Source: Rotaria magnacalcarata
Taxonomy: Eukaryota
Length of the DNA: 64,000 nucleotides
Reading direction: 5' to 3'
NCBI GenBank assembly: GCA_965140935.1
Contig: CBCSLL010000157.1
Location: forward strand, 33,416-97,415
Shown: in pieces, positions 4,401-61,646 of the stretch
Position numbering within the stretch: position 1 is the stretch's first letter
Layout: every line of letters starts with the position of its first letter
Notes under the pieces: generated by a model
What the model saw: only the letters and a program-made list of their open reading frames with translations
Databases searched by the model: none
Told to the model about the DNA's origin: nothing
Program-made: the position numbers and the translations under genes

Positions 4401-6339
4401 ATCAACTGACCGAAGATTATCAGAAATCTAGTGACAATTATCGGTCAGATGCAGCTAATCTTTTAAAACATGAAATAGAAAACCTTATCGAAGGTTCATA
4501 TTGTGATGTACAACAATCAGGAAATGCGATAGGCGATAATCATTAAAAGAAAACTGATTTCGTTTATTATAATGTACGAAATATCAAAATGTTGTAAATC
4601 TTTGTGCATATTACTATTTTCCTTATCTATATTTTAAGAATCATATTTACTTAATATTCATTGTATCTATTGTTCAACTATGCATTGTAGCTTATCTTCA
4701 TTTTCTATTCATGATCTTTGAAATATTCCAGTAACATTTGAATTCTTCACTCTAAGAAAACTCAAGTAAAGACTTTGCATTTGGTGAATAAAAATCTGTT
4801 AATATTTTCCGCGTGAATTAAACAAGATAAAAGTATGAGTTACCTGTGCAAACGGTTCATAGAAAAGTTGAACTGTATATCTTCATGCTAATACATCAGA
4901 TATCTTCGATAATTTCCACGATTTCAATGAAAAAATTTGAATGCACGTCTATTTATTCATAAGTTAAATTCTTTTCTTTTAATGTTTTTTACATTTATTC
5001 TCGAAACTCGCCGATTTGTAAATATTTTTTTGGCACTATTGTTTCCATCTATGTGCATTATATTTATGCATTTTTCTTCAAATGACTTCACCAATCTATT
5101 AATAAAATAAAATATCAAGATATGAGGCAGTGTCGATTATGGGATTATCTCGATCGAAACTATTGTCTGATATTGAAAGTGAACAGAAAATTAAACTTCA
5201 TAAGTTTTCTCATCATTAAGTAACGAGATATCTTTTAATAATTGATCCTAAACTGTGTCTCTTCAATATCATTTCATTAAAAAAGATTGTACCTAGCGCC
5301 TATTGAGATAATATACGACTGACTATATGATATTATTGAATGGAAAATTCAGTAGTGAACTCATTACGAAACCTTGAAAATTTGGTTTGAATATACTCTG
5401 ATATCAGCTGAAAGTAGAGCACTACGATGTAGTTTCGGTTACATTCCTGATGGGGCCAAAATTGGGATGCATAAATTTTCAATAGTAATCCCGATAGATG
5501 TTCTAGTCAAGAACGTTTCTATATATGTTCATATTTAGCTTTATATTTAAAGTGAGCACCTACACAAAGCATTCTTTTTTTTATCTATGATTCTGTCGGA
5601 TCGAAGTATTGATCTATAACGGTATTTTTTTCGATGCCAGGAATATCTTGCAGATCCTCAATAGTAATTTCAAAAAATAGGCATTCCTCTGTAGATCGTG
5701 ACTTTTAACATCGTCAAGGTTAACTTTAAACAAATCATAAGTGAAGATCGCTCATCTAGATGTTACAACCATGGTAAGAACTTTATGCGCTGAGAAAATC
5801 TTGCTAGTCAAAGGGATAGAGCTAGGAAACGTTCTAAATAGAAGAAAATAATAGTTTTCTATTTCCATAATTTTTCTTTCGAAATATCATATTCAAAAGA
5901 CTGTGAAAGACTGTGGGCTTTCTTTCCGCAACTGACTTCTAAATCGAAAAACAGCTTTCGTGAAACTTGAACTACTGACAGTTCTGGCACAAGCTGCACA
6001 TGAAACGCTAACTTTATTAAATAGTAAAATACAAAATAAAATCATCCAAAATATAATCTTTAATGTTATTTTTGATGTGTAATTAGTTGAATGCATCGCA
6101 ACCAAGCCTTTTTGATTTATACATTATTGAATACGATAAAAGCATTATCAACTAAATCAAGTATATTAGTGATTGTGCTATTTTAACAGGAAAAAATGAT
6201 TTATGATCGTACATAAAGCAAGAGCCATATGTAAAATGGAATGTTTGGACAATACGAGTTCAAGCATAAATAAATTGCATCTTGGTGGAAAATGTCAAAA
6301 AGGAAAACGCCGAAAATGTAATTCAATATATTCGACATT

Positions 6340-8835: not shown

Positions 8836-11489
8836 TTAAACATGATAAATACTAAAAGTTTATGTATAGTGTGCAGAAAAAAGCTGCTCGAGATGAAATA
8901 GTATAGTAAGATGTACAGTAATGTTAAATATTTTATGAGTCAAAGTTGATCAAAATAGAGTGACCAATGATGTTAATGATGGATCAGCTTGGTTACCATA
9001 TACATCTATAGTAAGTATGTTATTGAATTCAATAAATATCAAATAAGAAGACTAAATTCGAATTGGATATTAAGAAATTTGATGTCTTCATCGAATTATT
9101 CATATTTTTATAGACTAGTGACAGCACATAAAAGTTTAATTTAATATGGGTTTTTTGAAGCAGAAACTAAACTTTTTTCATTGGTGATTGGTCTACTCGG
9201 AGAATTGGATACTGAAAAATCGACGGAAATGAGTAAAATTTGTAGGTATAGATTTCAAAGGTGATAATATATACAAATACGTAAGCGCACTTTACATTTT
9301 CTGATAACTAGAAAAATCGATGGAAAGAATTATCCATATTTATATTTTCACCATAAGTGTACTTCAAACAACACGTAGCTCGGTCATGTTTTGTCATATT
9401 TTTTAGCACAGTGATGCAATATACTGTACTTTGTCATATTTGCACTGCATACAGATTGATATGTGTAACAAGTCTCTGCAACATGGTCCGTATTTCTAAG
9501 CCAGATACTATATCAGACGACAGTTCATTTCCAAGTCATCAGTGAACTATCAATCGTCCTACCCAGATGAAGATACTAGATGTAAGATCTAAAACGACTC
9601 TGAATTTGATCTACCATGACTTTCTAAAATCAGAAGGACGAACCGTCGTCTCAAAAATCTTACGTTAAGTAGTATTTATAGATTCTTGAAAGCTCTTCTT
9701 ACACTATAATATTTAAGTATACGATTGAATCAAATCTTACGTAATAGCAAAATCTTTCAAGAACCTTATAGTACGAGCTGATGTAAGATTGCTGAGAGTA
9801 TGATTGTTTTCTAAGATGTTATGTCAGATTTCTCTATCTCGGTGCTATACCATTCGAAGTGATTAAAAGTAATAAATGCAAAATAATTAATCAATCTTTT
9901 TTTGTTGTTGAAATTAAAAGCTATTCCTTAAATATAATGAAATTTGAGGGCTTAAGAATGCATAAATAATACACTGAGAAATGTGATTGTATGCAAAACT
10001 AGATTATTTTCAATCGATATCATTCGTTTATTCAGTCTCGTCTTACTTGCTACACGAGAAACCAACAATATATAGAGACTGCTTCTACAAAGTATATAGG
10101 CAAGTTCAAATTGGCGAACGCTTAGTTTTCAATAAGTATCTGTTTCAATAACGATTAATTCGTGTTAAACTTTGACAATAGATTAGATAGAATGACTGAG
10201 AATTTTTCTCGTTAGACATACTTATGAGTTCAGCAAAATGACATCAAAATACTTCAGAAAGTTTCTCGATATACTACGTAGGCAACGTTACAATTAACTG
10301 AAAGTTGAGGCTGTAAAACAAGAGAATCAGAGTATCCACCAATTCAGTTAAATCGATGGCTCGTATCTGATCCTCTCTTACTTTACATTAACATTGTTCA
10401 TTGTCGTCCATATTTCATTTGATACTCGTTCATCTCTTTTAGAAATACTGCTATTTGACAGAGGGGAAAGTGTCGTCCAAGCAGTGCTACCGTAGCTAAG
10501 GAAATAACTCTACGTAAAAGAAATTCGAATATTTTTTAAATATTTTAATTACTATTTGTTAGACTTGATTTAATTGTCATATTGGTTAGTAGTCATATTT
10601 GTCATAATCAAAAAATAGCGAAAGAAAGATGTTGTAAACTAGTTAAACTTTTCTACTCAAGTGTGTAATAATTTCTTCGTTTTTTTCATTGTAAATTCTA
10701 TTCAGATGACAGTTCAGATCAAACAAAATAAAAATATTCCAAAACTATAACATAGAATATAAGTTTTGTATCATTTATATTACTTACAAATTTCGCTTAT
10801 ATCATTTCTGTCTCCTATCTGAAAAAATATCCTCTATAGCGATGTTTCAATTTTTTATCATTGGTTTATATAAGACTATAAGTAGAAACCTGAGTTTTCA
10901 TGTCATAAAAAGAAATTGATACATACTCAAGTTCTATTCAATTAGTATTTGATTTTATCTTTGAAAGGTGGTATGATTCTAATTGAAGAATAGCGGTGTT
11001 GGTCAATTCAAATAGACATCATTTTTATAGAGATCATTATTTTTACAAATTCTTTGTACATCGGATAGCTTTTATTGTTATCAATGTTTGGACCATGATA
11101 ATTTTTCGATAAGAACGGTGCCCTTTGTTATTAAGTGAGATAATAAAACGTAGAGTTTATCTATGACAAGAATTTTATTTATTGCTGAAAGAAAATTTTT
11201 CTCGTATTTCACTTCCTTTTTTTACCATCAACTTTATATGATTCGATAGTATTTGATTTAGACATAAGTAAGGATAATAACCATTATATTCAAATATTTT
11301 TTTTGTCAATTACATAACTTGTTGTAGTGCATAGTTAGCTATAAAAATATTTAAAACAGAAAGGAAAATTATTCGGACAGCTAATATTGAATGATAAATA
11401 AAAAATGATCGCTTGATAATTATTTATATTCTAGTTTTTTCATGTAATTTTAAATCGGTTTTTCGACAAGTTGTTTTATTTATTTTCAG

Positions 11490-12503
11490 ATGACTACATA
11501 TCCCATAATAGAGAACTTTACTTTATCTATTTCAAATATTTCAACTGAAATCTATCCTCTAATTAATTCAATTCGACCTGATTGGAATTCATCGAATACT
11601 CGTTTAGTAACTTTTACCGAGGGTTTAACAAATGTAATCGTAGGTCTTTTTGATAATAGAAATCCTGACGATGAATCTAAAACGTTGATTATTAAAATTT
11701 ATGGTGCTCAGACAGAATCGTTTATTGACCGAGAATCTGAAATCAATGCTATGAAAATATTATCCGAACAAGGTGTTTTCTCCCAACGTATTCTTATTCA
11801 ATTTAATAATGGAATCATATATGAATATGCATCAGGGCAAACATGTTCAAGAGAAAATGTAAGAAAAGAGAATATTGTACGTTTGATTGCGCTTAAACTT
11901 GCCCAAATGCATAATGTACCAGTTCAAAGAGCCGAAAAACCTTATATTATTATATCATTACGTCGATTTATTCAATTGCTTGATGGAAGTTCATTTGATT
12001 TATCTTCAATTCGATCAGATATTGATGCAATAGAAGAACGAATTCTTCCTAGTCTTATTCCAAATGCTGAATTAGGCAAAGATCTTGTATTATGTCACAA
12101 TGATTTACTTGTTAAAAATATAATTTATAACGAAAAAACGACAACAGTATCATTTATTGATTTTGAATATGCGCATTTTAATTATTCTTTATTTGATATT
12201 GCAAATCATTTTATTGAGTATGCTGGTGTTGATAATGCAGATTTTACTATATATCCAGGTCGAGAAGAACAAAAAAAATGGTTAGAAATCTATTTTCAAG
12301 CTCGTGGAATGAGTCAACAAATAATTGATGACGATCTATGTCATCTTGTTGACCAATTTTCGGCTTTAGCGCAGTTAATGTGGGGACTTTGGGGATTAGT
12401 TCAAGCTCGTATATCACAATTGAACTTTGATTATATAAATTATGCAAAAATGAGGCTAGACTGTTATGAAAATTTACGGTCAAAGCTTTTTGAAAAAGAA
12501 TAA
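11490..12503 (+). CDS. Choline/ethanolamine kinase (single coding exon, 337 aa)
   Basis: N-terminus IRPDW…FTEGLTNVIVG; Brenner phosphotransferase motif LVLCHNDLLVKNIIY; choline-kinase motif SFIDFEYAHFNY. ATG is preceded by ttttattttcag. Stop TAA at 12501-12503. Confidence 0.8.
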   Translation: MTTYPIIENFTLSISNISTEIYPLINSIRPDWNSSNTRLVTFTEGLTNVIVGLFDNRNPDDESKTLIIKIYGAQTESFIDRESEINAMKILSEQGVFSQRILIQFNNGIIYEYASGQTCSRENVRKENIVRLIALKLAQMHNVPVQRAEKPYIIISLRRFIQLLDGSSFDLSSIRSDIDAIEERILPSLIPNAELGKDLVLCHNDLLVKNIIYNEKTTTVSFIDFEYAHFNYSLFDIANHFIEYAGVDNADFTIYPGREEQKKWLEIYFQARGMSQQIIDDDLCHLVDQFSALAQLMWGLWGLVQARISQLNFDYINYAKMRLDCYENLRSKLFEKE

Positions 12504-12600: not shown

Positions 12601-13731
12601 ATGTCATCGGCACATATACATGTTGCTGATGATAACGACTTATTAGCATAAATGCTTAGCTATCTTCTTGTACGATTGATATTAAATAAATTGAGCAAAA
12701 GTCAAATAATAACCATTGGTCTATCAGGTGGTTCTCTTGTTGATTTACATGCATCCATGTTACCTCGTTTACGATTACCCTGGGCTCGTTTAAAGTTCTT
12801 TTTTGTTGATCAAAGATTTGTTCCATTTACATCAGACGATTCAACTTATGGAAATTATCAATCAAAATTATTTCGACAGTTACCACTTACTGAGAATAAT
12901 ATTATTAAAATAGATGCAAATTTAGAAATTGTTGAAGAATATGCCAAAGATTATCAAAATAAACTACAAGAAGCATTGAACGGTGAAGATAAGGCTAGAA
13001 GGCTTGCTTTATTTTTATCTAGATAATAAAAATTTGATTTATTTAGTCGTTTGATATTGTTCTTCTCGGTATGGGACCTGATGAACATCAGAGCTGCCAG
13101 CAGACCAGCAAGAAAAGATCGTTGAACTGAAGTGTCTAATTTTTCAAATCCAACAAATCTCAAAGCTTTGGATTGACAAATTATTTTAACTGCAGCTATT
13201 AGTTTCTATTTTCCTAACGATAATCGAAAAATAAGTTCTCCTACACAATAGAAAATTAATAAAAAAAAGCTATTCCACACAGAAGACGCAAATCAGGTCA
13301 CTAAATTAGAACTGATCTAGTCTGTTAGCCTGGTTTAATATAATATGAACGAATCATGCCAAACTACAGTTTCAAATTCATCTGGCCTGGCAGGCCGGCC
13401 TGCTGGCATCTCTGATGGACATGTTGCTAGTCTTTTCTCAAACTGTTAGGCTGTGAATATAAATTAAGGGCTTGTTGCTTTTGTGAAAAATCCATCTAAG
13501 CCACCAGCCGAGCGTGTTGCATTAACATTACATACAATAAATCGAGCAAAATATAAAATTGCTGTTATAACAGGTAAAACTAAATCAACTGCTATCAAAG
13601 AAGTATTAAGAGAAAAAATAAAACTTATCCGATTTCACAAATTAATAATCTTGTTTGATATCTTGATAAAGCTGCTGCTAAACATCTATAAGCACTTTCG
13701 AGTAATCTTCTATTTAGGTACCTATCAGTAA
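12601..13731 (+). pseudogene. PGLS: 6-phosphogluconolactonase (PGLS) locus carrying multiple disabling lesions
   Basis: GLSGGSL, FVDQRFVPF, DIVLLGMGPD, DGHVASLFSN and NPSKPPAERVALTL…VITGKTKSTAIKEVL align along human PGLS. The N-terminus MSSAHIHVADDNDLLA is cut by an in-frame TAA at 12649-12651, directly before the ATG at 12652. A probable GC-AG intron spans 12994-13046. The exon coding GMGPD|GHVASLF is split by a 326-bp TIR element. TAG at 13447 and TAA at 13465 lie between the DGHVASLFSN and NPSKPP segments, where only a 24-nt candidate intron is available. Confidence 0.6.
13089..13414. mobile_element. hAT-like MITE (~326 bp) inserted into the PGLS coding exon
   Basis: Terminal inverted repeats cagagctgccagcagaccagc and (reverse complement of the right end) cagagatgccagcaggccggc match at 18/21 and start with CAGAG, hAT-like. 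Flanking 8-bp direct repeats atgaacat (13081-13088) and atggacat (13415-13422). Removing the element and one TSD copy restores ggt atg gga cct gat gga cat gtt gct = GMGPDGHVA. The element carries a GGCCGGCC palindrome. Confidence 0.55.
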
Positions 13732-14584
13732 GTTTCAATGATCTTGGTTTGCCGAGGCTTTTTTATGGGGGATATTTCTAATATTTATTGAATGCAATAC
13801 TATGGATAGTTGTTTATTTTTATTTTTGTTTCTGAACAAATAAAAGTTTGTTAGAATAGGAAAATATGAGTTTATTGTGTAACTTCGACAATGAAAACTT
13901 TATGAATAATACTTAAGATCATGGAATTGCCATGATTAAGTATAGTGAATAAAATTGTCCGAATTATTCAGCACAGAGAAAATCGACCCATACGAATAGA
14001 CTACTTTCCAGCATAACACAATTCAGCCTTTTTGCATTGATGTTTCGTGAAGTAACAATAAATATCCAGTAAAACTATAGAGAAAATACTTTAATTTCTA
14101 ATTATTGCTTAATGTTTAAACGGGAAAGAACCGATACATTTAGAAAATGATCAAGATTTTTATAGATTCATCTAAAAAGACTGCCTACTTCAAATGTGAT
14201 TAAATTATGGCAGAGATCAAAAGATGCTTGAGAGAAATATGTGAAATTTCTGTTTCTAAATCTTTGATATTAATTAAGTGTCAGACGAATCGCATGATCT
14301 ATCGAAAATTTTCAAAGCATGTCCTTTGAACATTGTAAAATTTTACTGCGTTTAAATGGGGAATTCATTGTGGTTTTCGTGATTAACGTGGATGTGTCTG
14401 TGATCACTATACTATTCGATAATGATGTCATTCTTTGGAAAATATGCACGGAGTCAATATTGGAGATAAACAATTAAAACAATTGATTTATCAAAGATCA
14501 TTCGAAATTGTATGATCGTTTATCATAGTTTAACTGCGATGAGTAGAAAATATCTAATGCGGTAGTGCATAGGATGGTATGATG

Positions 14585-14800
14585 GAAACAAGCAGAAAGG
14601 AAAGATATCGAAAGGGGAAAATGTCGAAAATAAAAATATCGAAAACAACATTGATACAAATGTAGATGAATAGAAATGCTGAAAACGAGAGTATATTGAA
14701 GTACAAGTCTCCTCCACCCTCAATTCAATCTTACGTGTTCATGTTCATCTCATATTCTCGTTTTCGACATTTTTCCTTTCTGCCTTTTCCCATCCACTCC
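14585..14800. repeat. Local inverted copies of the cgaaaa-type repeat family also seen at 6340-6430
   Basis: gcagaaaggaaagatatcgaaaggggaaaatgtcgaaaat…gctgaaaacgagagtatattga is followed by tcatattctcgttttcgacatttttcctttctgcc, which is its partial reverse complement. Confidence 0.45.
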
Positions 14801-17800
14801 ATAGGATGATTCAATGATGATGCGGACTCATCGTCATGTCAATATCAAGTACGCATAGTCCAGCTAGCTATTTTCAAATGATTGATCAAAGATGCAAGAA
14901 TTTTTAATTTACTTTTATTGGATGCAAAAAATATTCAAAATTAAGTTTGAATTATTTTGATTAACATATTAAAATTGGTAAAGCAGTACAGAGAGTTTAA
15001 AACGAAGCTTGCTTTCAGTTTACAGATATTTTTTAAATAGAACAATTTTTTTACATATTTTTATCACAGAAATGAAAATTTCTCAGCTGTCAAATTGTTT
15101 CTGAAGGCATCATAAAGATAGTCGAAAAGATTTTTGTATAAGAAGCTTATTTTTAAATATTTTTAGACATTACTGAACAGTTCAAAATATTGATGATATT
15201 TGATCTCTTTGTTCACTGGTCATTTTTTAAAGATTTTCCTGAATGAAGTTTTTTCTAAATTTAATACGAAAACAAATCGGATCAATTTGTGTAATAATGA
15301 TAGTGTGCAGGCGCATAGATCTAAAAATAATTGCTTACAATAGAATGAATTGTTATTATTTATTATTATGGTTCACATTAGTTTTTGGAAGAGAGAGAAA
15401 ACCTATTTCCATGTATCGTGAAATATTTGTTATAATTTATATGATACGGTTTTTCATCTATTCACCCACGATTTACTTACGAACTCTTTTTTCAACAAAA
15501 GCATTAACAACACGAAAGATTCTGTTGTAACACCGTATGTTGAGTAGATACGACAAATAAACAAAAGTAAAGCAATGCAAATCATTTAGCGAACTTCGAA
15601 TGTTTATCGATCCGTATCCTCGCACAATCATGTGTTGATAATGCCTCTTTTTCGGCAACAAGAAAACATACGAATAACGGAAGTCATTTCTACAGGATTC
15701 GTACAATTAGTTGACATATCGTGTTCATCGATCACCTTCGAATATAACTCTGCAGCTAAATCTTTTGTTTTTCAACAAACGATACTTATGTCTGTTGATA
15801 TAGAGCTTGACAACAACAGCATTAACCTAAATTATTATCAAGCCTACGATATAGACCGATATGATACTACGAATGTAACCGTCTTGTAATAACCAACAAT
15901 CACCGAAGTAATCCGATGCACACCTAATATCAACGCAGACAATCTATGGTTGACATTTCTTAAATAACGACCGAATGCAACTTACAAGTAGACACAAACG
16001 GCAATGACGATCAGCTTGCTTATTCGCTTCTGCTAGGTTTTTGGTAAATTGAGCAGTTTAAAAAGCGTGAGTAAAAATAGATATAATCCGAACATCCAGA
16101 CCTATTGTAGCGTTTCTCTACTATTGTTTCATAGAGTTCGACTCGTTACATAGAGTATTCGCTAGGTTGTTACAGGAGTAATTTCTATTAGACGTTAGTT
16201 GGTTTCTACTCGTTTCAATTAGTTCATCATGTTTAAAAGATTAATTTTCGTTGTGTAGAGCTGCTATTCATTGCTACAGTAAATACGATTTGATACATAT
16301 TCATGTGTTTTTTCAATATTGAGTAAATTGACGATTCAATGTAGTAAATAGGTAGAACTAGAATCAATTCTTAAGTTCCTAAATAAAGTTAGTAAATATA
16401 TCCAGTTTTAAGATGAGAAGTTCTAGTGATAGTTGTACTAACAACAATACTTACCAAAAATTAGTCTAATCTGTCGAAATCTTGTCGCGTAAAAATAGTA
16501 TTGAATGCTATCATGGTCCAAAGAGTATTCATCGTCTGATGTGTTTATTTTTCCCTTTCTATTGGAAAAGGAGTTATTGGTAGAGCTATTAATTGATCAA
16601 ACAGCATAAGCATTCGATTTCAAAATGAATTCAGAAATGACTTCACGCCAAAGTCACATACACTGTTTTATGAATTGTTGTTCATGTATCTAGATTAATC
16701 GGTAATCTATTGCATAGAGCCTATGTCTCTTCTTTAATCCTTATAATTTATTTTCGATGTCATGCATCTTGAAAGTAGAGATGATGAGTTCACAATTTGA
16801 GAAATGCATCAAAATAAAGAAATAAACTGTAAAAATTCTAAGTATAAAATAAACCTGTAGGGAAATGCCACTCCTAATCATCATTTTAGAATAGCTAAAA
16901 TAATATACATATCTTTATATATAAATAACATCTGATCTTTATATTTAGTTTTGTTGATTTGATTTAAGGTTTATTTGTAACTATTAGTGTGGTCATGTGC
17001 TGTTACATTGGGATATGAATAATTTATTAAGAAAATATAAAACGAAATAAATAATAATGATATGTATTTAACAGCAAACATATAATAATGTTTTCTGAAA
17101 TAATAACTACTCGTATTAATCATCGACATAGATTATATTTAGAGCATATATAAAACGTAATTTTAAAAGTTCAAACTAATACAATCATATACCAATCGAA
17201 TTCGAATAGAAATGAATTATTTTTTGTTGAAAATGTTTCGGTTAAATCTCATATAGTGTTTATTTTATGTTATAATGAATCGATTTGCCCGATACTATGC
17301 TCATAACAATTAAGTTGTGATTTGTTAATTTACTTCGAAAGATGCAAAATTTATCTGTGATAAAAATCTAAATCATGAAAATAATTTTTATTCGCATATT
17401 TTTAATATTTTGTACGATGTATGTATTTTACATTATACAAGTGTACGCGGTTACCTATCAACATTAGTATTTTTCTCACTTGATTGACATACATATAATA
17501 TACTAATTAAGAATAAGTAATATGGCGTATTTCCCTTAATTTTTGCTCGCATAGTATCTCACACAAATAGTCAACTTCAAATAATTAAGTAAATATATAT
17601 ATATAGGTTAATATTGAAAAGCGCACAAAACGTATATGCGCTACGTTTTCTTCGATTCCAATTGTATAAATAGTTTCAGTATGTTTATTTGTATCACTCT
17701 CTATACTTTGTTCGACAAAAAAGCATTTTCAGACATTACAAAACACTGTATAATTTTGAGTGAATATTCATAAAAATTCAATTTTAGTTGTTTGCTGAAA

Positions 17801-27227: not shown

Positions 27228-28547
27228 ATATCGAGCTAAGATTTAAATTGAAAAATCTATACAATACTAGAGAAAAACAGCAATCACTTATAAAATGACG
27301 TTATTTTCTATCGCATTAATCTAATGTCTTGTATCGATTCGCATTTTAAAAGATGCTAATTTATGTAGGCTTGCTTTTTGTGTACTCAAAAAAAGTGAGT
27401 GCACTCTAGATTCGGCCAGTGTGTCCGGCCGGCCGTTAACACGATAACCTTTGAAAGCCTCACCCAATTGTCATGAAATTTTGTACACAGAATGATTTCA
27501 TCAATATCTCAGTCAAGTTCGAAGATGAGAGGGATTCGTCAAGAAATGGCTGAGTTATCGAAAAAATTGTCATTATTGACCTGACCATCCCTGACGGAGG
27601 GGGGGGGAGGGTACAGGGATTTAAAAAAAACATTTTTTTTCTCAGAATGATTCACAACATATATAAATTGACTCAGTTTTTCAAGTACACATAACGATCG
27701 GATGCAAATCCGATGTTTCCGCATTTATTTTCTCTTGATCAACTTATTATAATTATGTTCAATCAAATACTTTTATCTAACGAATCATTCAGAAGTCCAA
27801 TGAGACAACTACTTCAAATATTACTTTAGCTAAATGTAGCTATCAACTCACTAAGATATTGCTTTTTCCTTATGGAAATGTTTGATAGAGCAAACTTTCT
27901 GTGGTAGTCAGATTTATTTTTTCTATGATGTGATGATCACTTCATTTGAAATTATTTTTAAAGAATTATCGTGAAATTATGAGTTTCTATTGAAAGTTTT
28001 CTAGTTCAAATATTCACTGTAGTAAGAGTAGAATAGTAGACTCGAAGACTGTAGCAGATGTTAATTATAGAGAAAATCAACATAACTCATAAACTGTAAA
28101 CTCAAGACTCTTTAAGAATCCATAGGGTTTACATGGGTTCCCGAATACTAGAGAGATTTAAATATATTCTCCTAGGACGCAAGATGACTGCATGAGACTT
28201 AAAGAAAGAAGTTTTTATTTGTTTTCTTGTCAAAAAGAAGTCAGCTTCAACATAGTTTCATTATTTGAGAGTGTGCTAATCATTTTGATGCTGACTATAT
28301 GCTAAATGGTATGATAATGGTAAACTATATATATGGAAGTCTCTTCAGATAAAACAAAAACAATAAGTTTTAGGAGTAATCGATTTTGGAATATCATAAA
28401 GGCAAGTAAAAATCGTTTTGACATAGATGACCGGCGAATGCTATTTTTCGCGACGGAAAGATGATGTATGAATCGTCAATTTAATCTTTATAGGGAAGTG
28501 AAGAATGCATTCTAGTGACAGCTTCTCGTTCTATACAGACGTTCAAA

Positions 28548-48482: not shown

Positions 48483-50001
48483 TCATTGAAAATGTTTTGA
48501 AGAACATGAACTTCGATCAATATCAAATTTATCAATGCGGCCAGTACCATAATTTGAAACAAATATATTTCCATGTTGATCAAATGCTAAATCATTTGCT
48601 TGACTAAGTGTATATTGCTTTTCACCGATAATGATTGTACCATTGACACTATACCGTGTGAAATGCATAACTCTACTGTAATATCCATCAATAGAATAAA
48701 TATTACCCGATTGATCTAGATGAACTGCTCGAGGCCATCGCAACTTTCCTACAATAATTCCTTCTTTTGCATCTTCTGTCCATTTCATAATTCGATCATT
48801 AGATTGATCCGCTACGTATACAGTTCGATTTTGATCAACAAAAATAGCTGAAGGTTCATTGAATTGATCAAGTCGATTACCTTTACCGTTTCCACCAGCT
48901 ACTAGCCGATCATGCGCTATATTTTCTCCTAATATCCATCGTGTAACTCGATGATTATCATGTTCAGTAATATAAAGTAAAGCTTGGTTATCTAATGCTA
49001 AACCGGTACAGTATATATTATTGATTAGTATTTCTCCTTGTTGGGCACGCCTTGCCCATCGAATAATCCGTCGATTTCTTGCATCACATATAATTAAACT
49101 TCCATCTTTTGGGTCCATCAATATATCTGATACCTAATCAAATGTAATCTAGTTTTTGAACGAAGCTAACACTCCTTTTTCTTCTACTTACCCAACCAAG
49201 TTGATCAGTTCTATTTCCTTCCCCGTTACCTCCCGCTATAACATTTCCACGCTTAGCAGCTGGTTGCCACGTTACAATACGTGCGTTTCCATTATCAGAA
49301 ACATAGAGAGTATTTGTTTTCAAATCAAATACAATGGCAGTAGGACTTCGAAGTTGATCGAGTGCTGTACCACTATAGTTACTGCCAGCAACAGTTCTAC
49401 CCTGTTTAGCCCAGCTTACATTACGACAAACCACCTCAGCTGGTATCGGTGATAATGTAGATGAACCTATTCGATATCAAGGTAGAATGGAAAACATTTC
49501 GTTTCACTAGAAAATTATTTTTCTACTTGAATTTGTCTGCAATGGCGGACAAAGATCTAGTGCAGCCATACCAGTTGGATAACACAATGGTTGACCTATT
49601 GATAACTTTGGATGATGAATACAAACAGTATATGGTTGATCACAATAGTAATTTATTTCATTGCATGTTCTTAGTTTTGAAGCATTTAAATGAAGATATG
49701 CACAAATTCCACTTTGTTCACCTGCTGATGAAAACGGAAGACAGCCACAATCAGGATTAGTTGAACAAGGAGCATAGAGTGGTAAATTTCGACATGTTTG
49801 ACCTCTTGTCAAAACTAAATGAGACGAAATACAATAATCAAAATACAATTAGATAATTAGCAGTGTTATACCGAATAAGCTAAACCGTAATAAACAAAAA
49901 AAAATGAATAATTAAATAATTATTTTATGAAAATATTTACCTTTGTAATACAATGAATGCGATAGTAGAAGGAAGAAACATTCTATTAATCATTTTCATT
50001 C
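48483..50001 (-). CDS. Secreted NHL-repeat protein (six NHL blades) with a Cys-rich N-terminal domain; 4 coding exons, 420 aa
   Basis: Exons 49943-50001 (MKMINRMFLPSTIAFIVLQ signal peptide, donor GTAAAT), 49527-49804 (Cys-rich: GQTCRNLPLYAPCSTNPDCGCLPF…CDQPYTVCIHHP…LCPPLQTNS), 49192-49466, 48483-49133 (stop TGA). Phases sum to 1263 nt. Six units of the type AGGNGEGNRTDQLGWVSDILMDPKDGSLIICDARNRRIIRW and AGGNGKGNRLDQFNEPSAIFVDQNRTVYVADQSNDRIMKW. Confidence 0.75.
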
Positions 50002-56013: not shown

Positions 56014-58482
56014 CTAAACATTAATCATTAAGAAATTAAATGTTGAACGAATTTGAAAAATCTCTTTTTCTTTCATAGAAAATTTACCTTGAATGCTTTC
56101 ATCGATGACAGTCAACACATTTGATTTTGTTACATTTTTTGGTACAGTATGATCGAAATATAAAATCATTAATAATTCCTTTCGTAAATCATCATAATCG
56201 ATAATATTTTCAATATAATTTTCATTCATATCGCAATATTTCAACATATTTTTAATAACAACGGGCACACCGAAACTATTTTCATTATCAATAGTTTTTA
56301 AAATATTTTTAATATATTCAACTTCAGCTTCATGAGTGATTAATTTTCGATCTTTACCTGTGACTGTTTCTGGAATCAATTCGATTGGTTTACACATTTC
56401 ATCATGAAAATACTGAATGAAACTTTTTTCAACAAAATCAGGATCTTGCTGATTTATATCAATACCAATTGTGTCTTGATTACTTGCAACCGTTTTAACT
56501 CTTTGACTTTCATCACCATATAATAATCGTTCGATAATATTAATTTTGTCGGTAGGCAAATTTTGATGTAAATATCGTCGGAGATATTCATAATAGACTG
56601 GCATTAGAATAGTCTTTAAATCGCCTATTAAATATCCAATAATCAATGGAATACTTAAATCATATGTTCCATTTTGTCGTCCATGAATACTGCTAATAAA
56701 ATTTTTCAAGGTTTTTTCACCATACGCACTTTTGAAACCGATGGATTCAGTCACAATAAAATGACAGACTTTTTCGAATTCAGTTATCAAGTTTTTATTT
56801 CTTGTTGTACCAGTACGCAATATAATGATGTCATATAGTAGTTTAAGTAAACCAATTTCTTGTTCTTTATCATAACCATATGAATCTAAAGTAAACATAT
56901 ATCCTAACCAAATACCTTCTAAAATACGTATACGTTTCATGTGTTCATAATTAATATACAGTGGTATTACTGCATTGATTTTTTCATGTAATTGACCAAC
57001 TACACAATAGGTATCATTAATTCCAGCAAACAATCCGTAATTACTATCATCCGCTTGTTGTTGTTGTTGTTGTAATAATTGCTGTTGTGAATTTTTCGTC
57101 AAAGTCATTGCAGCAATAAATGAATCATATGAAATCAAGGTGTTTGACACACTAATCAATTTTAATCCTTTCGTTGGTGATGTAATGGCTTGTTCATTAC
57201 GTTCGATTAATATTCCTAAGCACATGATATTATCCGAAGTTTTTCTCATCATTTCATATATATCATCACTAGAATATGTACAAACCCAGTCAGATTTCTG
57301 TTCTTTTATTTTATTCCAACCTTCTTGATCTATATTTTTTCTATAACCCTCTAATATTCCACTAATATCTGTTTTCCGAAAATAATCAACATTTTTATTA
57401 ATACGTAAATCTAATTTTTTACGTCGCTGTGCATTAGCAAACGTAGCATCGTGTCTTAATGCACTCAGTTTTAATTTGACTTGTTCTGGAACTTGTCCCA
57501 TTTTAATTTGTGTAAATAATTTTGTGTATTCCATCATTCGTTCGTCAATTTCTTTTTTAATTTGCTCTAATTCTAATTTTTCCATAAGATCAGCACTTGC
57601 TGTTGGAATAATTGAATTTAAATATGTACGAATTTGGTGAACGGATTCTTCGTTATCTGGAGAAACTAAAGTTAATGCACGTATAACATGAATTGGGCGA
57701 ATAGGTTGCATAATTTGTAATGGAATTTTTGATTCACCATCCGGCGATTTAAATATAATTTCTTGAATTCTCGTATTATCAATCGTCATATTGTCAATTA
57801 AAAATCCAACTGTTTCTTCATTACTACTTGATGTATACGATTGTCCATTAATAACTATTGTAAATTCTCTAGCCGACATTGCATATTCAAACATATCGTT
57901 GAAATTGCTTTGTAATTCTGCTGATTGAGTTGAATATCGAAATAAACCTTCTTTTGTGCCAAATTTTCGAACTTGATCCAAAAAATTATTATTCACTTCA
58001 CCAAAGCCAATGACATGAAATATAATAATAATTGTTTTTGAGAGTCCACTGATTGATAATTTTAACATTTGAATAGCTCTTTTCAATGCATCTTGTGAAT
58101 CAGTATCTTGACCATCAGTCATAAAAATAAATGTGGTTGATTTTTGATTATTAACTAAATGATTTTGAATAGCAGTAAAGATTGAACTGAAACTAGTACC
58201 ACCATTTGCATCTAAATCTGTGTTCTCAACAGATTTTATTGTTTTTGTCGTGTCTGCCCTTGTATTATAAGTGAACAATGGATATTCAATTTTTGTACGT
58301 TGATAAATATCTTTTAAAACTGCACAAACATTACGAATAGGACTGCCGCTCATTGAGCCTGATACATCTACACAACAGATTATATTTTTGCCAGATGATG
58401 AATCGACTTTTGGTACTTTAACTTCGATGTAATGATGTTCACCACCACCAACAGTAAAAGGAGTTTTGAAATATGTAGCCAT
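56014..58482 (-). CDS. Intronless 822-aa protein with an N-terminal von Willebrand A domain (intact MIDAS motif) and a long uncharacterised C-terminal region
   Basis: MIDAS DxSxS = CCVDVSGSMSGSP; second metal-site motifs TSFSSIF and FMTDGQDTD. No signal peptide. An internal (CAA/TTG)n run encodes QQQLLQQQQQQ (~57054-57080). Longest uninterrupted ORF in the window. Confidence 0.7.
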   Translation of the reverse strand: MATYFKTPFTVGGGEHHYIEVKVPKVDSSSGKNIICCVDVSGSMSGSPIRNVCAVLKDIYQRTKIEYPLFTYNTRADTTKTIKSVENTDLDANGGTSFSSIFTAIQNHLVNNQKSTTFIFMTDGQDTDSQDALKRAIQMLKLSISGLSKTIIIIFHVIGFGEVNNNFLDQVRKFGTKEGLFRYSTQSAELQSNFNDMFEYAMSAREFTIVINGQSYTSSSNEETVGFLIDNMTIDNTRIQEIIFKSPDGESKIPLQIMQPIRPIHVIRALTLVSPDNEESVHQIRTYLNSIIPTASADLMEKLELEQIKKEIDERMMEYTKLFTQIKMGQVPEQVKLKLSALRHDATFANAQRRKKLDLRINKNVDYFRKTDISGILEGYRKNIDQEGWNKIKEQKSDWVCTYSSDDIYEMMRKTSDNIMCLGILIERNEQAITSPTKGLKLISVSNTLISYDSFIAAMTLTKNSQQQLLQQQQQQADDSNYGLFAGINDTYCVVGQLHEKINAVIPLYINYEHMKRIRILEGIWLGYMFTLDSYGYDKEQEIGLLKLLYDIIILRTGTTRNKNLITEFEKVCHFIVTESIGFKSAYGEKTLKNFISSIHGRQNGTYDLSIPLIIGYLIGDLKTILMPVYYEYLRRYLHQNLPTDKINIIERLLYGDESQRVKTVASNQDTIGIDINQQDPDFVEKSFIQYFHDEMCKPIELIPETVTGKDRKLITHEAEVEYIKNILKTIDNENSFGVPVVIKNMLKYCDMNENYIENIIDYDDLRKELLMILYFDHTVPKNVTKSNVLTVIDESIQGKFSMKEKEIFQIRSTFNFLMINV

Positions 58483-60836: not shown

Positions 60837-61646
60837 ATGTGGCACTATATTTATTCTAGATCAGCGATGGAACAAGCTGGCATGCATGTCAATAATTCTA
60901 CGAATGAACACAGAAATAATAATCCGAATCATTTTATTATTTGGCTGGATAAACATATTGGAAAACCTGACGAATGTATTCTATTAAAATGTTCTTTATT
61001 CATGGCAATAGATCCGACAACCGGTTTGTATGAAAAACAACTTAACAAAGATGATATTGATCAGAGTATTCTCTGTGAAGCTAGCCTTCTTGTACGACTC
61101 GATGAGGTTGAATTCATGTTTCAAGCTTTTGAAGATGTAGAGAAATGTTTTCTCACTATTGAAAAAAGTCGTCATAAACGTATCTTTTTTATTACCTCTG
61201 GTTCCAAAGGAAGGATGATTGTACCAAGTCTCATCAAAAATTTTCCAGGTACATTTGTAAAAGATTATTGGATATATATATTTTGTGCAAATATGAATAT
61301 GGCAGCAGTTGCAAATGCTGAACCACCAACCAATACTTGGGCACTCGAGTTTCTAGATCATGTTTTGATGTTTAACCATCAAGATGACTTAATGGCTCGT
61401 ATGGTAGTGGAGATTGGTAATTATTTTTTTACGGAAGCGAAACGTCTGGATACAGATAACCAGTTTGATAGTGCTTATGAGTACTATCGGTGGTCAAAAA
61501 CAATGTATCAACGATATGAAATAATGGAGAATAGAAGAAAGTCTGATAGAATCGAAGAAATTGATCAAAATATCAAGATTATTGAAGAACGACGCCAAGA
61601 GCAAGAAGACAACGAAGACAATCATGTGGGCAAAGCACCTTCTTGA
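60837..61646 (+). CDS. 269-aa protein consisting of the N-terminal domain of a lineage-expanded family whose members usually continue into repeat/effector modules; single ORF
   Basis: Motifs HFIIWLDKHIG, RIFFITSGSKGRMIVPSL, DYWIYIFCAN. I recall this architecture from bdelloid-rotifer-type proteomes; this is memory, not a search. Stop TGA at 61644-61646, and a GTAAGT donor 27 nt downstream is out of frame. Confidence 0.5.
   Translation: MWHYIYSRSAMEQAGMHVNNSTNEHRNNNPNHFIIWLDKHIGKPDECILLKCSLFMAIDPTTGLYEKQLNKDDIDQSILCEASLLVRLDEVEFMFQAFEDVEKCFLTIEKSRHKRIFFITSGSKGRMIVPSLIKNFPGTFVKDYWIYIFCANMNMAAVANAEPPTNTWALEFLDHVLMFNHQDDLMARMVVEIGNYFFTEAKRLDTDNQFDSAYEYYRWSKTMYQRYEIMENRRKSDRIEEIDQNIKIIEERRQEQEDNEDNHVGKAPS

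Follow-up and report, generated by a model that had tools for sequence, protein, structure and literature searches.

The 64-kb window of Rotaria magnacalcarata DNA analysed here (the whole stretch of 64,000 nt) contains an intact choline/ethanolamine kinase gene and, immediately downstream on the same strand, the relic of a 6-phosphogluconolactonase (PGLS) gene, whose active-site motif is interrupted by a small element with terminal inverted repeats (TIRs) (Table 1). The ATG of the relic lies 97 nt 3' of the kinase gene, and the same gene order, with a spacing of about 100 bp, is found in R. sordida and in Rotaria sp. Silwood-2. The protein sequence of the kinase is identical to that of R. magnacalcarata CAF1446829 and of other entries of the species, and is present on 14 of its contigs. 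The window is 99.6-100% identical to the corresponding loci of six R. magnacalcarata assemblies (L006-L011), has a GC content of about 30% and holds stop-free open reading frames (ORFs) of up to 822 codons under the standard genetic code.

The initial annotation had recognized a PGLS locus, an identification now secured by full-length collinear homology, by a Pfam match and by orthology through synteny. Once the intron, the 326-bp insert and one copy of the target site duplication (TSD) are removed, with stops read as X and one frameshift corrected, the repaired translation matches PF01182 (Glucosamine_iso) with E=4.9e-53 and 180.7 bits (cut-off 27), over profile positions 2-217 of 225. In the alignment of the relic with PGLS the motifs GLSGGS, FVDERFVP and LLGMGPDGH(T/V)ASLF are collinear, and this collinearity extends over the full length of the PGLS/SOL/DevB family, for which structures are available from, e.g., Thermotoga maritima (1PBT), Mycobacterium tuberculosis (3ICO) and Trypanosoma brucei (2J0E/3E7F). 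The top protein matches all come from bdelloid rotifers: the relic is 78% identical to the intact 234-aa PGLS of R. sordida and 76% identical to that of R. sp. Silwood-2, and two short gene models of R. socialis follow with 82-83% aligned identity. Like its intact paralogue and the intact orthologues, the relic has a single intron at the same position and a choline kinase gene upstream. Unlike functional PGLS, which has an uninterrupted frame with the GxGxDGH and DER motifs, it carries four in-frame stops, a frameshift, an insertion that splits the catalytic motif and a DER to DQR replacement. Judged from the sequence, no full-length PGLS product would be encodable by the relic, and a non-functional state of this PGLS locus is supported.

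Table 1. Features of the PGLS relic and its neighbourhood, with the intact paralogues (positions refer to the window unless another locus is named).
Feature	Position	Strand	Remarks
Intact choline/ethanolamine kinase gene (synteny anchor)	11490..12503	+	337 codons; Pfam Choline_kinase E=1e-61
Unprocessed PGLS pseudogene, 'B' paralogue	12601..13691	+	Ancestral ATG to ancestral TAA stop (13689-13691)
Nonsense TAA at codon 17	12649..12651	+	All rotifer orthologues have GAA/Glu; TAA in each of the six R. magnacalcarata loci
CAA, Glu>Gln in conserved FVDERFVP (DER>DQR)	12811..12813	+	E71Q; arose on the R. magnacalcarata branch
Single 53-nt intron, GC donor instead of GT	12994..13046	+	Comparison with orthologues and paralogues
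Left TSD copy ATGAACAT, one G>A change	13081..13088	.	Single ATGGAYAT in sister species
Non-coding TIR element, 326 bp, hAT-like, non-autonomous	13089..13414	.	TIRs 13089-13103 and 13400-13414
Right TSD copy ATGGACAT, ancestral sequence	13415..13422	.	Encodes part of D-G-H; orthologue comparison
Nonsense TAG	13447..13449	+	TCA/Ser in orthologues
Nonsense TAA	13465..13467	+	CAA/Gln in R. socialis, Gln/Glu across orthologues; polymorphic within R. magnacalcarata
A-run with 1-bp deletion, -1 frameshift	13612..13617	+	6 A here vs 7 A in R. socialis and R. sordida
TGA in place of conserved Trp TGG (LVWYLD motif)	13656..13658	+	Orthologue alignment
Intact A copy P0127, R. magnacalcarata	L015 6001-6767		GT-AG intron at the same codon as in B
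Intact A copy, R. socialis, 237 aa	L037 5268-6034		GT-AG intron at the same position; no lesions

At least seven disabling or damaging changes have accumulated in the relic. The early TAA at codon 17, already noticed in the initial annotation, is present, and so are the two stops that had been placed between the last two homology blocks, where no intron could remove them: both are sense codons in the orthologues, none of which has an intron at the aligned positions. Five further changes had escaped attention, namely the frameshift in the A-run, the TGG to TGA change, the DER to DQR replacement, the GC donor of the intron and the G to A change in the left TSD copy. A GT donor is present in B of R. 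sordida and Silwood-2 and in the A copy of each of R. magnacalcarata and R. socialis, and a GC donor in the relics of the latter two species. GC-AG introns can undergo splicing, and the deposited gene models P0013 and P0126 both splice this one. Within R. magnacalcarata one haplotype, represented by L007 and L010, still has CAA at the codon at 13465 and has lost 8 bp (12991-12998), a deletion that removes the exon-intron junction. Because one nonsense codon and this 8-bp deletion are polymorphic within the species, the decay of the B relic is still in progress.

The element that splits the active-site motif is bounded by CAGAGCTGCCAGCAG and CTGCTGGCATCTCTG, which form 15-bp inverted repeats matching at 14 of 15 positions, and excision of the element with one TSD copy rebuilds ...LLGMGPDGHVASLF... 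in frame, exactly as had been claimed at the outset. The rebuilt codons include the His of the D-G-H motif, conserved across the aligned orthologues, which we take to be the catalytic His of PGLS. The element itself has a GC content of 37% and is closed by stops in all six frames. An origin from an RNA gene or a tRNA was considered and rejected, since an Rfam search gave only a sub-threshold match to snR63 (20 bits; gathering score 50) and a search for tRNAs was negative.

Members of the hAT superfamily produce 8-bp target site duplications, have TIRs of 10-25 bp (PMC8961557) and insert at targets with the consensus 5'-nTnnnnAn-3' (PMC10368747; PMC8961557). In the present case the TIRs are 15 bp long, the duplication measures 8 bp when compared with the empty site, and the target ATGGACAT carries the T and the A of this consensus at positions 2 and 7. 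Small size and the lack of an ORF are further traits by which the element resembles non-autonomous derivatives of the Ac, hobo and Hermes type. Its termini start with CAGAG, as do the TIRs of hobo and Hermes (CAGAGAAC...). Unlike established hAT families, whose autonomous members encode a transposase with a BED finger, a DDE/RNase H-like domain and a hAT dimerisation domain, it has neither a transposase-encoding relative nor another copy in the sequences searched: no second copy was found by blastn in the 64-kb window or in the fetched loci of R. magnacalcarata, R. socialis, R. sordida and Silwood-2, and no transposase domain was found in the 17 window ORFs scanned against Pfam. JGI metagenomes were scanned both for the two TIRs separated by a gap of 281-311 nt and, separately, for a 21-nt degenerate TIR, and returned only 21-nt chance matches in GC-rich, presumably bacterial contigs. 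Of the original designation as a hAT-type MITE, the first half is supported by structure, which justifies the label of a putative hAT-like non-autonomous element; the second, which implies a multi-copy family, is not yet justified by the single copy seen in the sequences searched.

The proposal that a transposon had entered coding sequence is confirmed by comparison with related species. The boundaries of the element fall exactly at those of an indel against five loci of R. socialis, three of R. sordida and that of R. sp. Silwood-2, all of which are syntenic and have one uninterrupted ATGGAYAT each; chance does not account for this. With a nucleotide identity of about 92%, the R. socialis loci (L001-L005) align collinearly with the window and keep the order of kinase and PGLS; their empty site reads GGACCTGATGGATATATTGCA, with the 8-mer present once, and those of R. 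sordida and Silwood-2 contain a single ATGGACAT. Because empty sites with a single 8-mer occur in three syntenic sister species, the alignments show that the element truly inserted into the active-site motif of PGLS. It was found in all five R. magnacalcarata assemblies that could be resolved at this position (L007-L011), in which it is 99.7-100% identical, the sixth assembly having an N gap. Two of the carriers, GCA_905319835.1 and GCA_905321285.1, stand in the isolate table of PMC7943196 and are read as isolates MAG3 and RM15. As the element is present in every resolving R. magnacalcarata assembly and absent from R. socialis, the insertion is younger than the split from R. socialis and older than the point at which the sampled R. 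magnacalcarata lineages diverged; it also appears to be fixed in the species, as sampled by five assemblies from at least two wild isolates. On the question of whether the insertion is fixed or allelic, which had been raised with the initial annotation, assembly comparison thus points to fixation.

A functional PGLS copy had been expected elsewhere in the genome, and one that is intact by sequence, P0127, was found. This A copy is 237 aa long, has all the motifs, occurs on 11 contigs and is also present in the same assembly as the relic (GCA_965120345.2). The counterpart in R. socialis, which differs from it at 8 of 237 residues, was missed by protein searches and located via its TMEM163 neighbour, so that the idea that R. 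socialis has no intact PGLS was rejected. The A copy lies 3' of a second choline kinase with 66-69% protein identity to the kinase of the window (tblastn, two segments); R. magnacalcarata and R. socialis therefore both have the choline kinase/PGLS block in duplicate. Neighbour-joining placed the B clade outside a group uniting the Rotaria A copies and the Adineta sequences. Together, the two-gene collinear block and this tree suggest that A and B derive from an old duplication, possibly the bdelloid tetraploidy. Between the A copies of R. magnacalcarata and R. socialis the Nei-Gojobori dN/dS is 0.31 (8 nonsynonymous and 7 synonymous differences), and the A copy is read as being under purifying selection; because it is also intact, the lactonase step of the pentose-phosphate pathway would be covered.

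The B orthologue of R. socialis is also dead, although it lacks the element: it has a +2 frameshift in a T-run, a -1 frameshift, a replacement of the catalytic His by Tyr and one of Arg by Pro, none of which is common to the relic in the window. All the frank disabling lesions are thus lineage-specific, and the GC donor is the only candidate lesion common to both species. Between the two B relics the Nei-Gojobori dN/dS is 0.95 (37 nonsynonymous and 11 synonymous differences), a value that derives from 48 substitutions only and is compatible with a brief period of constraint after the split. The same method gave 0.18 for the adjacent choline kinase in the same pair of species (13 and 18) and 0.21 for the intact B copies of R. 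sordida and Silwood-2 (24.5 and 29.5). The ratio of the relics fits the neutral ratio of sites (binomial p=0.86), and their substitution counts differ from those of the kinase (Fisher p=0.002). When the changes were mapped by parsimony, 26 nonsynonymous and 8 synonymous substitutions fell on the R. magnacalcarata branch and 12 and 3 on the R. socialis branch, and the stem preceding the split of the two species received about 23 and 37, with an omega of roughly 0.18. On these counts both relics are taken to have evolved neutrally since the species split.

Loss of constraint bears on the claim that a nonsense codon and a MITE had inactivated the locus. The lesions are there, but a sole or causal role for them is improbable, as at least seven changes are present and the R. 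socialis copy died without the element. Since that copy is dead, the GC donor is shared and dN/dS is 0.95, we infer that the element probably landed in a gene that was already unconstrained, and was secondary to an earlier loss.

The history that we favour, with a probability of about 0.75, is that a redundant duplicate was pseudogenized, that its constraint was lost before or at the species split, and that the element was inserted later. The B copy would be the decayed member of an old choline kinase-PGLS duplicate pair in the degenerate-tetraploid R. magnacalcarata, and constraint on it would have been lost at or just before the separation from R. socialis. The first hit may plausibly have been the GT to GC mutation that both relics have at the donor of the sole intron, a step deduced from its distribution. 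The B copies of both species would then have drifted neutrally and gathered independent lesions; in the R. magnacalcarata lineage, cut-and-paste integration of the 326-bp non-autonomous element would have duplicated ATGGACAT through an 8-bp staggered cut. By chance the element would have landed in the catalytic Asp-Gly-His codons, where it may now be inert DNA. The timing of the loss of function relative to the insertion is deduced in this scheme, no unambiguous disabling lesion being present in both species.

For this same reason the insertion may instead have been the primary inactivating event in R. magnacalcarata, the R. socialis copy having died separately and the GC donor being a harmless shared variant. 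We consider this unlikely, though it deserves to be weighed. Every frank disabling lesion is lineage-specific, the GC donor, sole shared candidate, is spliced in the deposited models P0013 and P0126, and a knock-out insertion would have been tolerable given the intact A copy; against this, the same copy would have to be lost twice independently in sister species, and a dN/dS of about 1 over both entire terminal branches (26:8 and 12:3) implies that relaxation began at or near the split. The match of the two TSD copies at 7 of 8 positions and of the TIRs at 14 of 15 implies that the insertion has some age, not that it came first. Far less probable is a useful truncated protein of 124-141 aa read from the ATG at 12652 and deposited as a 'Glucosamine/galactosamine-6-phosphate isomerase domain-containing protein'. 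Of the six R. magnacalcarata assemblies read, five do have gene models that start at 12652 (P0124-P0126), and the ORF at 12652-13026 is open for 124 codons, but the fragment would lack the region of the first beta-strand and the entire catalytic half and would carry the DER to DQR change, its substitutions are neutral, and the ORF is not conserved, being broken by the +2 frameshift in R. socialis and by the 8-bp junction deletion in L007/L010.

That the lesions are unreal, whether as assembly errors, through a variant genetic code or because the element is spliced as an intron, is an explanation to which we give next to no credence. A TGA at a Trp position and TAA at Gln/Glu positions superficially recall stop reassignment; however, the same lesions recur in independent assemblies from several isolates, long ORFs are open under the standard code in AT-rich DNA, and the neighbouring genes end in TAA. 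Reassignment of TAA, TAG and TGA as in ciliates was rejected: standard ORFs reach 822 codons, a relaxed stop set barely lengthens the longest of them, and the DNA is that of a rotifer. Clean splicing of the element, named beforehand as the finding that would overturn the initial annotation, is excluded by inspection of the sequence. None of the nine possible 334-nt excision registers, each removing the element and one TSD copy, runs from GT to AG, and one has AT...AC ends that do not fit the U12 donor consensus. Nearby GT/AG pairs around the element break the frame, and the other stops and the frameshift would persist after splicing. An introner-like element would have functional splice sites bounding the element plus one TSD, and such sites are lacking here.

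The preferred reading, that of a duplicate already released from constraint and then hit by the element, makes the locus comparable to the pseudogenes left by fractionation after whole-genome duplication, which degenerate-tetraploid bdelloids are expected to have. As in those, the intron, the neighbour on the promoter side and the synteny are kept, the sister paralogue is intact and dN/dS is about 1. The parental intron and context, the intact paralogue and the neutral pattern of substitution are also what characterizes an unprocessed pseudogene. In annotation, fractionation is seen in the retention of B as the intact copy in R. sordida and Silwood-2, and of A in R. magnacalcarata, R. socialis and Silwood-1. 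Compared with other fractionation pseudogenes there is nothing unusual, save that the loss is recent enough for the relic still to be 76-78% identical to functional orthologues.

The B copy has decayed in R. magnacalcarata and R. socialis, which are non-desiccating, and is intact in the desiccation-tolerant R. sordida and Silwood-2. Within the same 20 kb, R. magnacalcarata and R. socialis also differ by other small TIR-bounded indels, which would fit mobility of a family. Two related and more far-reaching ideas can be formulated, both of which we regard as doubtful and as distinctly speculative: the element might be the first known representative of a hAT-like non-autonomous family, so far undescribed, whose members moved in R. 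magnacalcarata once it had separated from R. socialis, and the loss of B might reflect a relaxed need for NADPH and the pentose-phosphate pathway once desiccation tolerance was lost.

On the whole, a redundant duplicate has here become an ordinary unprocessed pseudogene with a lineage-specific DNA-transposon insertion, and current understanding is unchanged. Whether gene redundancy lets bdelloids tolerate genic insertions has been asked before, with the conclusion that most insertions are costly (PMC7943196). The locus does not contradict this conclusion, because the target gene was most likely already non-functional. The deposited proteins of 112-141 aa in R. magnacalcarata and of 146-149 aa in R. 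socialis, named 'Glucosamine/galactosamine-6-phosphate isomerase domain-containing protein', are to be regarded as pseudogene fragments and not as genes to count. If such mobility of a family were real, a DNA transposon would be added to the evidence that transposition is still taking place in an animal of putatively ancient asexuality. The locus in any case adds one well-documented DNA-transposon insertion with empty-site controls. It also offers a clean and datable instance of how a duplicate gene is lost in an asexual animal that is a degenerate tetraploid: two species have a candidate first hit in common, their copies later decayed independently, and some of the lesions have remained polymorphic.

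The intact A copy of the 6-phosphogluconolactonase (PGLS) gene is also present in R. socialis, where it is annotated as a 237-aa protein at positions 5268-6034 of the A-block locus L037. This protein differs at only 8 of 237 residues from the R. magnacalcarata A-copy protein used as query (P0127) and was returned by neither of the word-indexed protein searches; that such a search does not return a sequence is therefore no sign that the sequence is lacking. In R. magnacalcarata, the surroundings of the A copy differ between assemblies. In GCA_905321285.1 a 1061-aa gene model with a reverse-transcriptase domain (RVT_1) lies upstream of the intact gene (positions 1-2744 of the A-copy locus L016), while in GCA_965120345.2 this position is occupied by a methyltransferase and a choline-kinase paralogue. 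This could reflect either a polymorphic retroelement insertion or a difference in assembly.

Fragments of the B copy, the PGLS pseudogene of the window, have been translated into public protein entries (window 12652-13026; deposited models P0124-P0126, P0013 and P0014), including CAF1589487, CAF1446822, CAM4760029 and UniRef A0A815ZY79. They carry the name 'Glucosamine/galactosamine-6-phosphate isomerase domain-containing protein', and the gene model of P0126 extends into the transposon by 13 codons. Decay of the B copy was seen in R. magnacalcarata and R. socialis, the two non-desiccating species examined, while R. sordida and Silwood-2, which tolerate desiccation, have kept it intact. Any correlation between its decay and the loss of desiccation tolerance would be weak, since for Silwood-1, which is also tolerant, only an A-type protein was found among the search results. 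Since the split of the two species, 34 substitutions have accumulated on the R. magnacalcarata branch and 15 on that of R. socialis, an approximately twofold difference that refers to the relic sequence only.

Comparison of the window with the orthologous region of R. socialis (L002) revealed three more structural differences on the R. magnacalcarata side, listed below together with the insertions particular to R. socialis and the other features of the window.

Features of the window and of the R. socialis loci L002 and L037
Feature	Location	Size	Remarks
R. magnacalcarata-only segment	window 10257-10372	116 bp	vs R. socialis
Stretch replacing non-homologous 1.1 kb of R. socialis	window 14256-16142	1.9 kb	
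R. magnacalcarata-only segment	window 17083-17341	259 bp	vs R. socialis
Interspersed repeat	window 27371-27738	~365 bp	
Copies/fragments of this repeat	L037 11993-12322, 14017-14321, 14317-14515, 14930-14983		82-96% identical
NHL-repeat protein	window 48483-49121		
vWA-domain protein	window 56014-58482	822 aa	exact sequence not recorded as gene product
ORF	window 60837-61646	269 aa	no match in Pfam scan
R. socialis-only insertion	L002 8839-8964	126 bp	ends CCCTAG...CTAGGG
R. socialis-only insertion	L002 11944-12180	237 bp	ends CCCTAATCCGCCCACC...GGTGGGCGGATTAGGG, TTAA either side

The interspersed repeat, with four copies or fragments in L037, is a genuine multi-copy family, in contrast to the element inserted in the PGLS relic. 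At the ends of the two R. magnacalcarata-only segments no obvious terminal inverted repeats (TIRs) or target-site duplications were seen. The TTAA flanks of the longer R. socialis insertion are piggyBac-like. Small TIR elements have evidently been mobile in both species after R. magnacalcarata and R. socialis separated.
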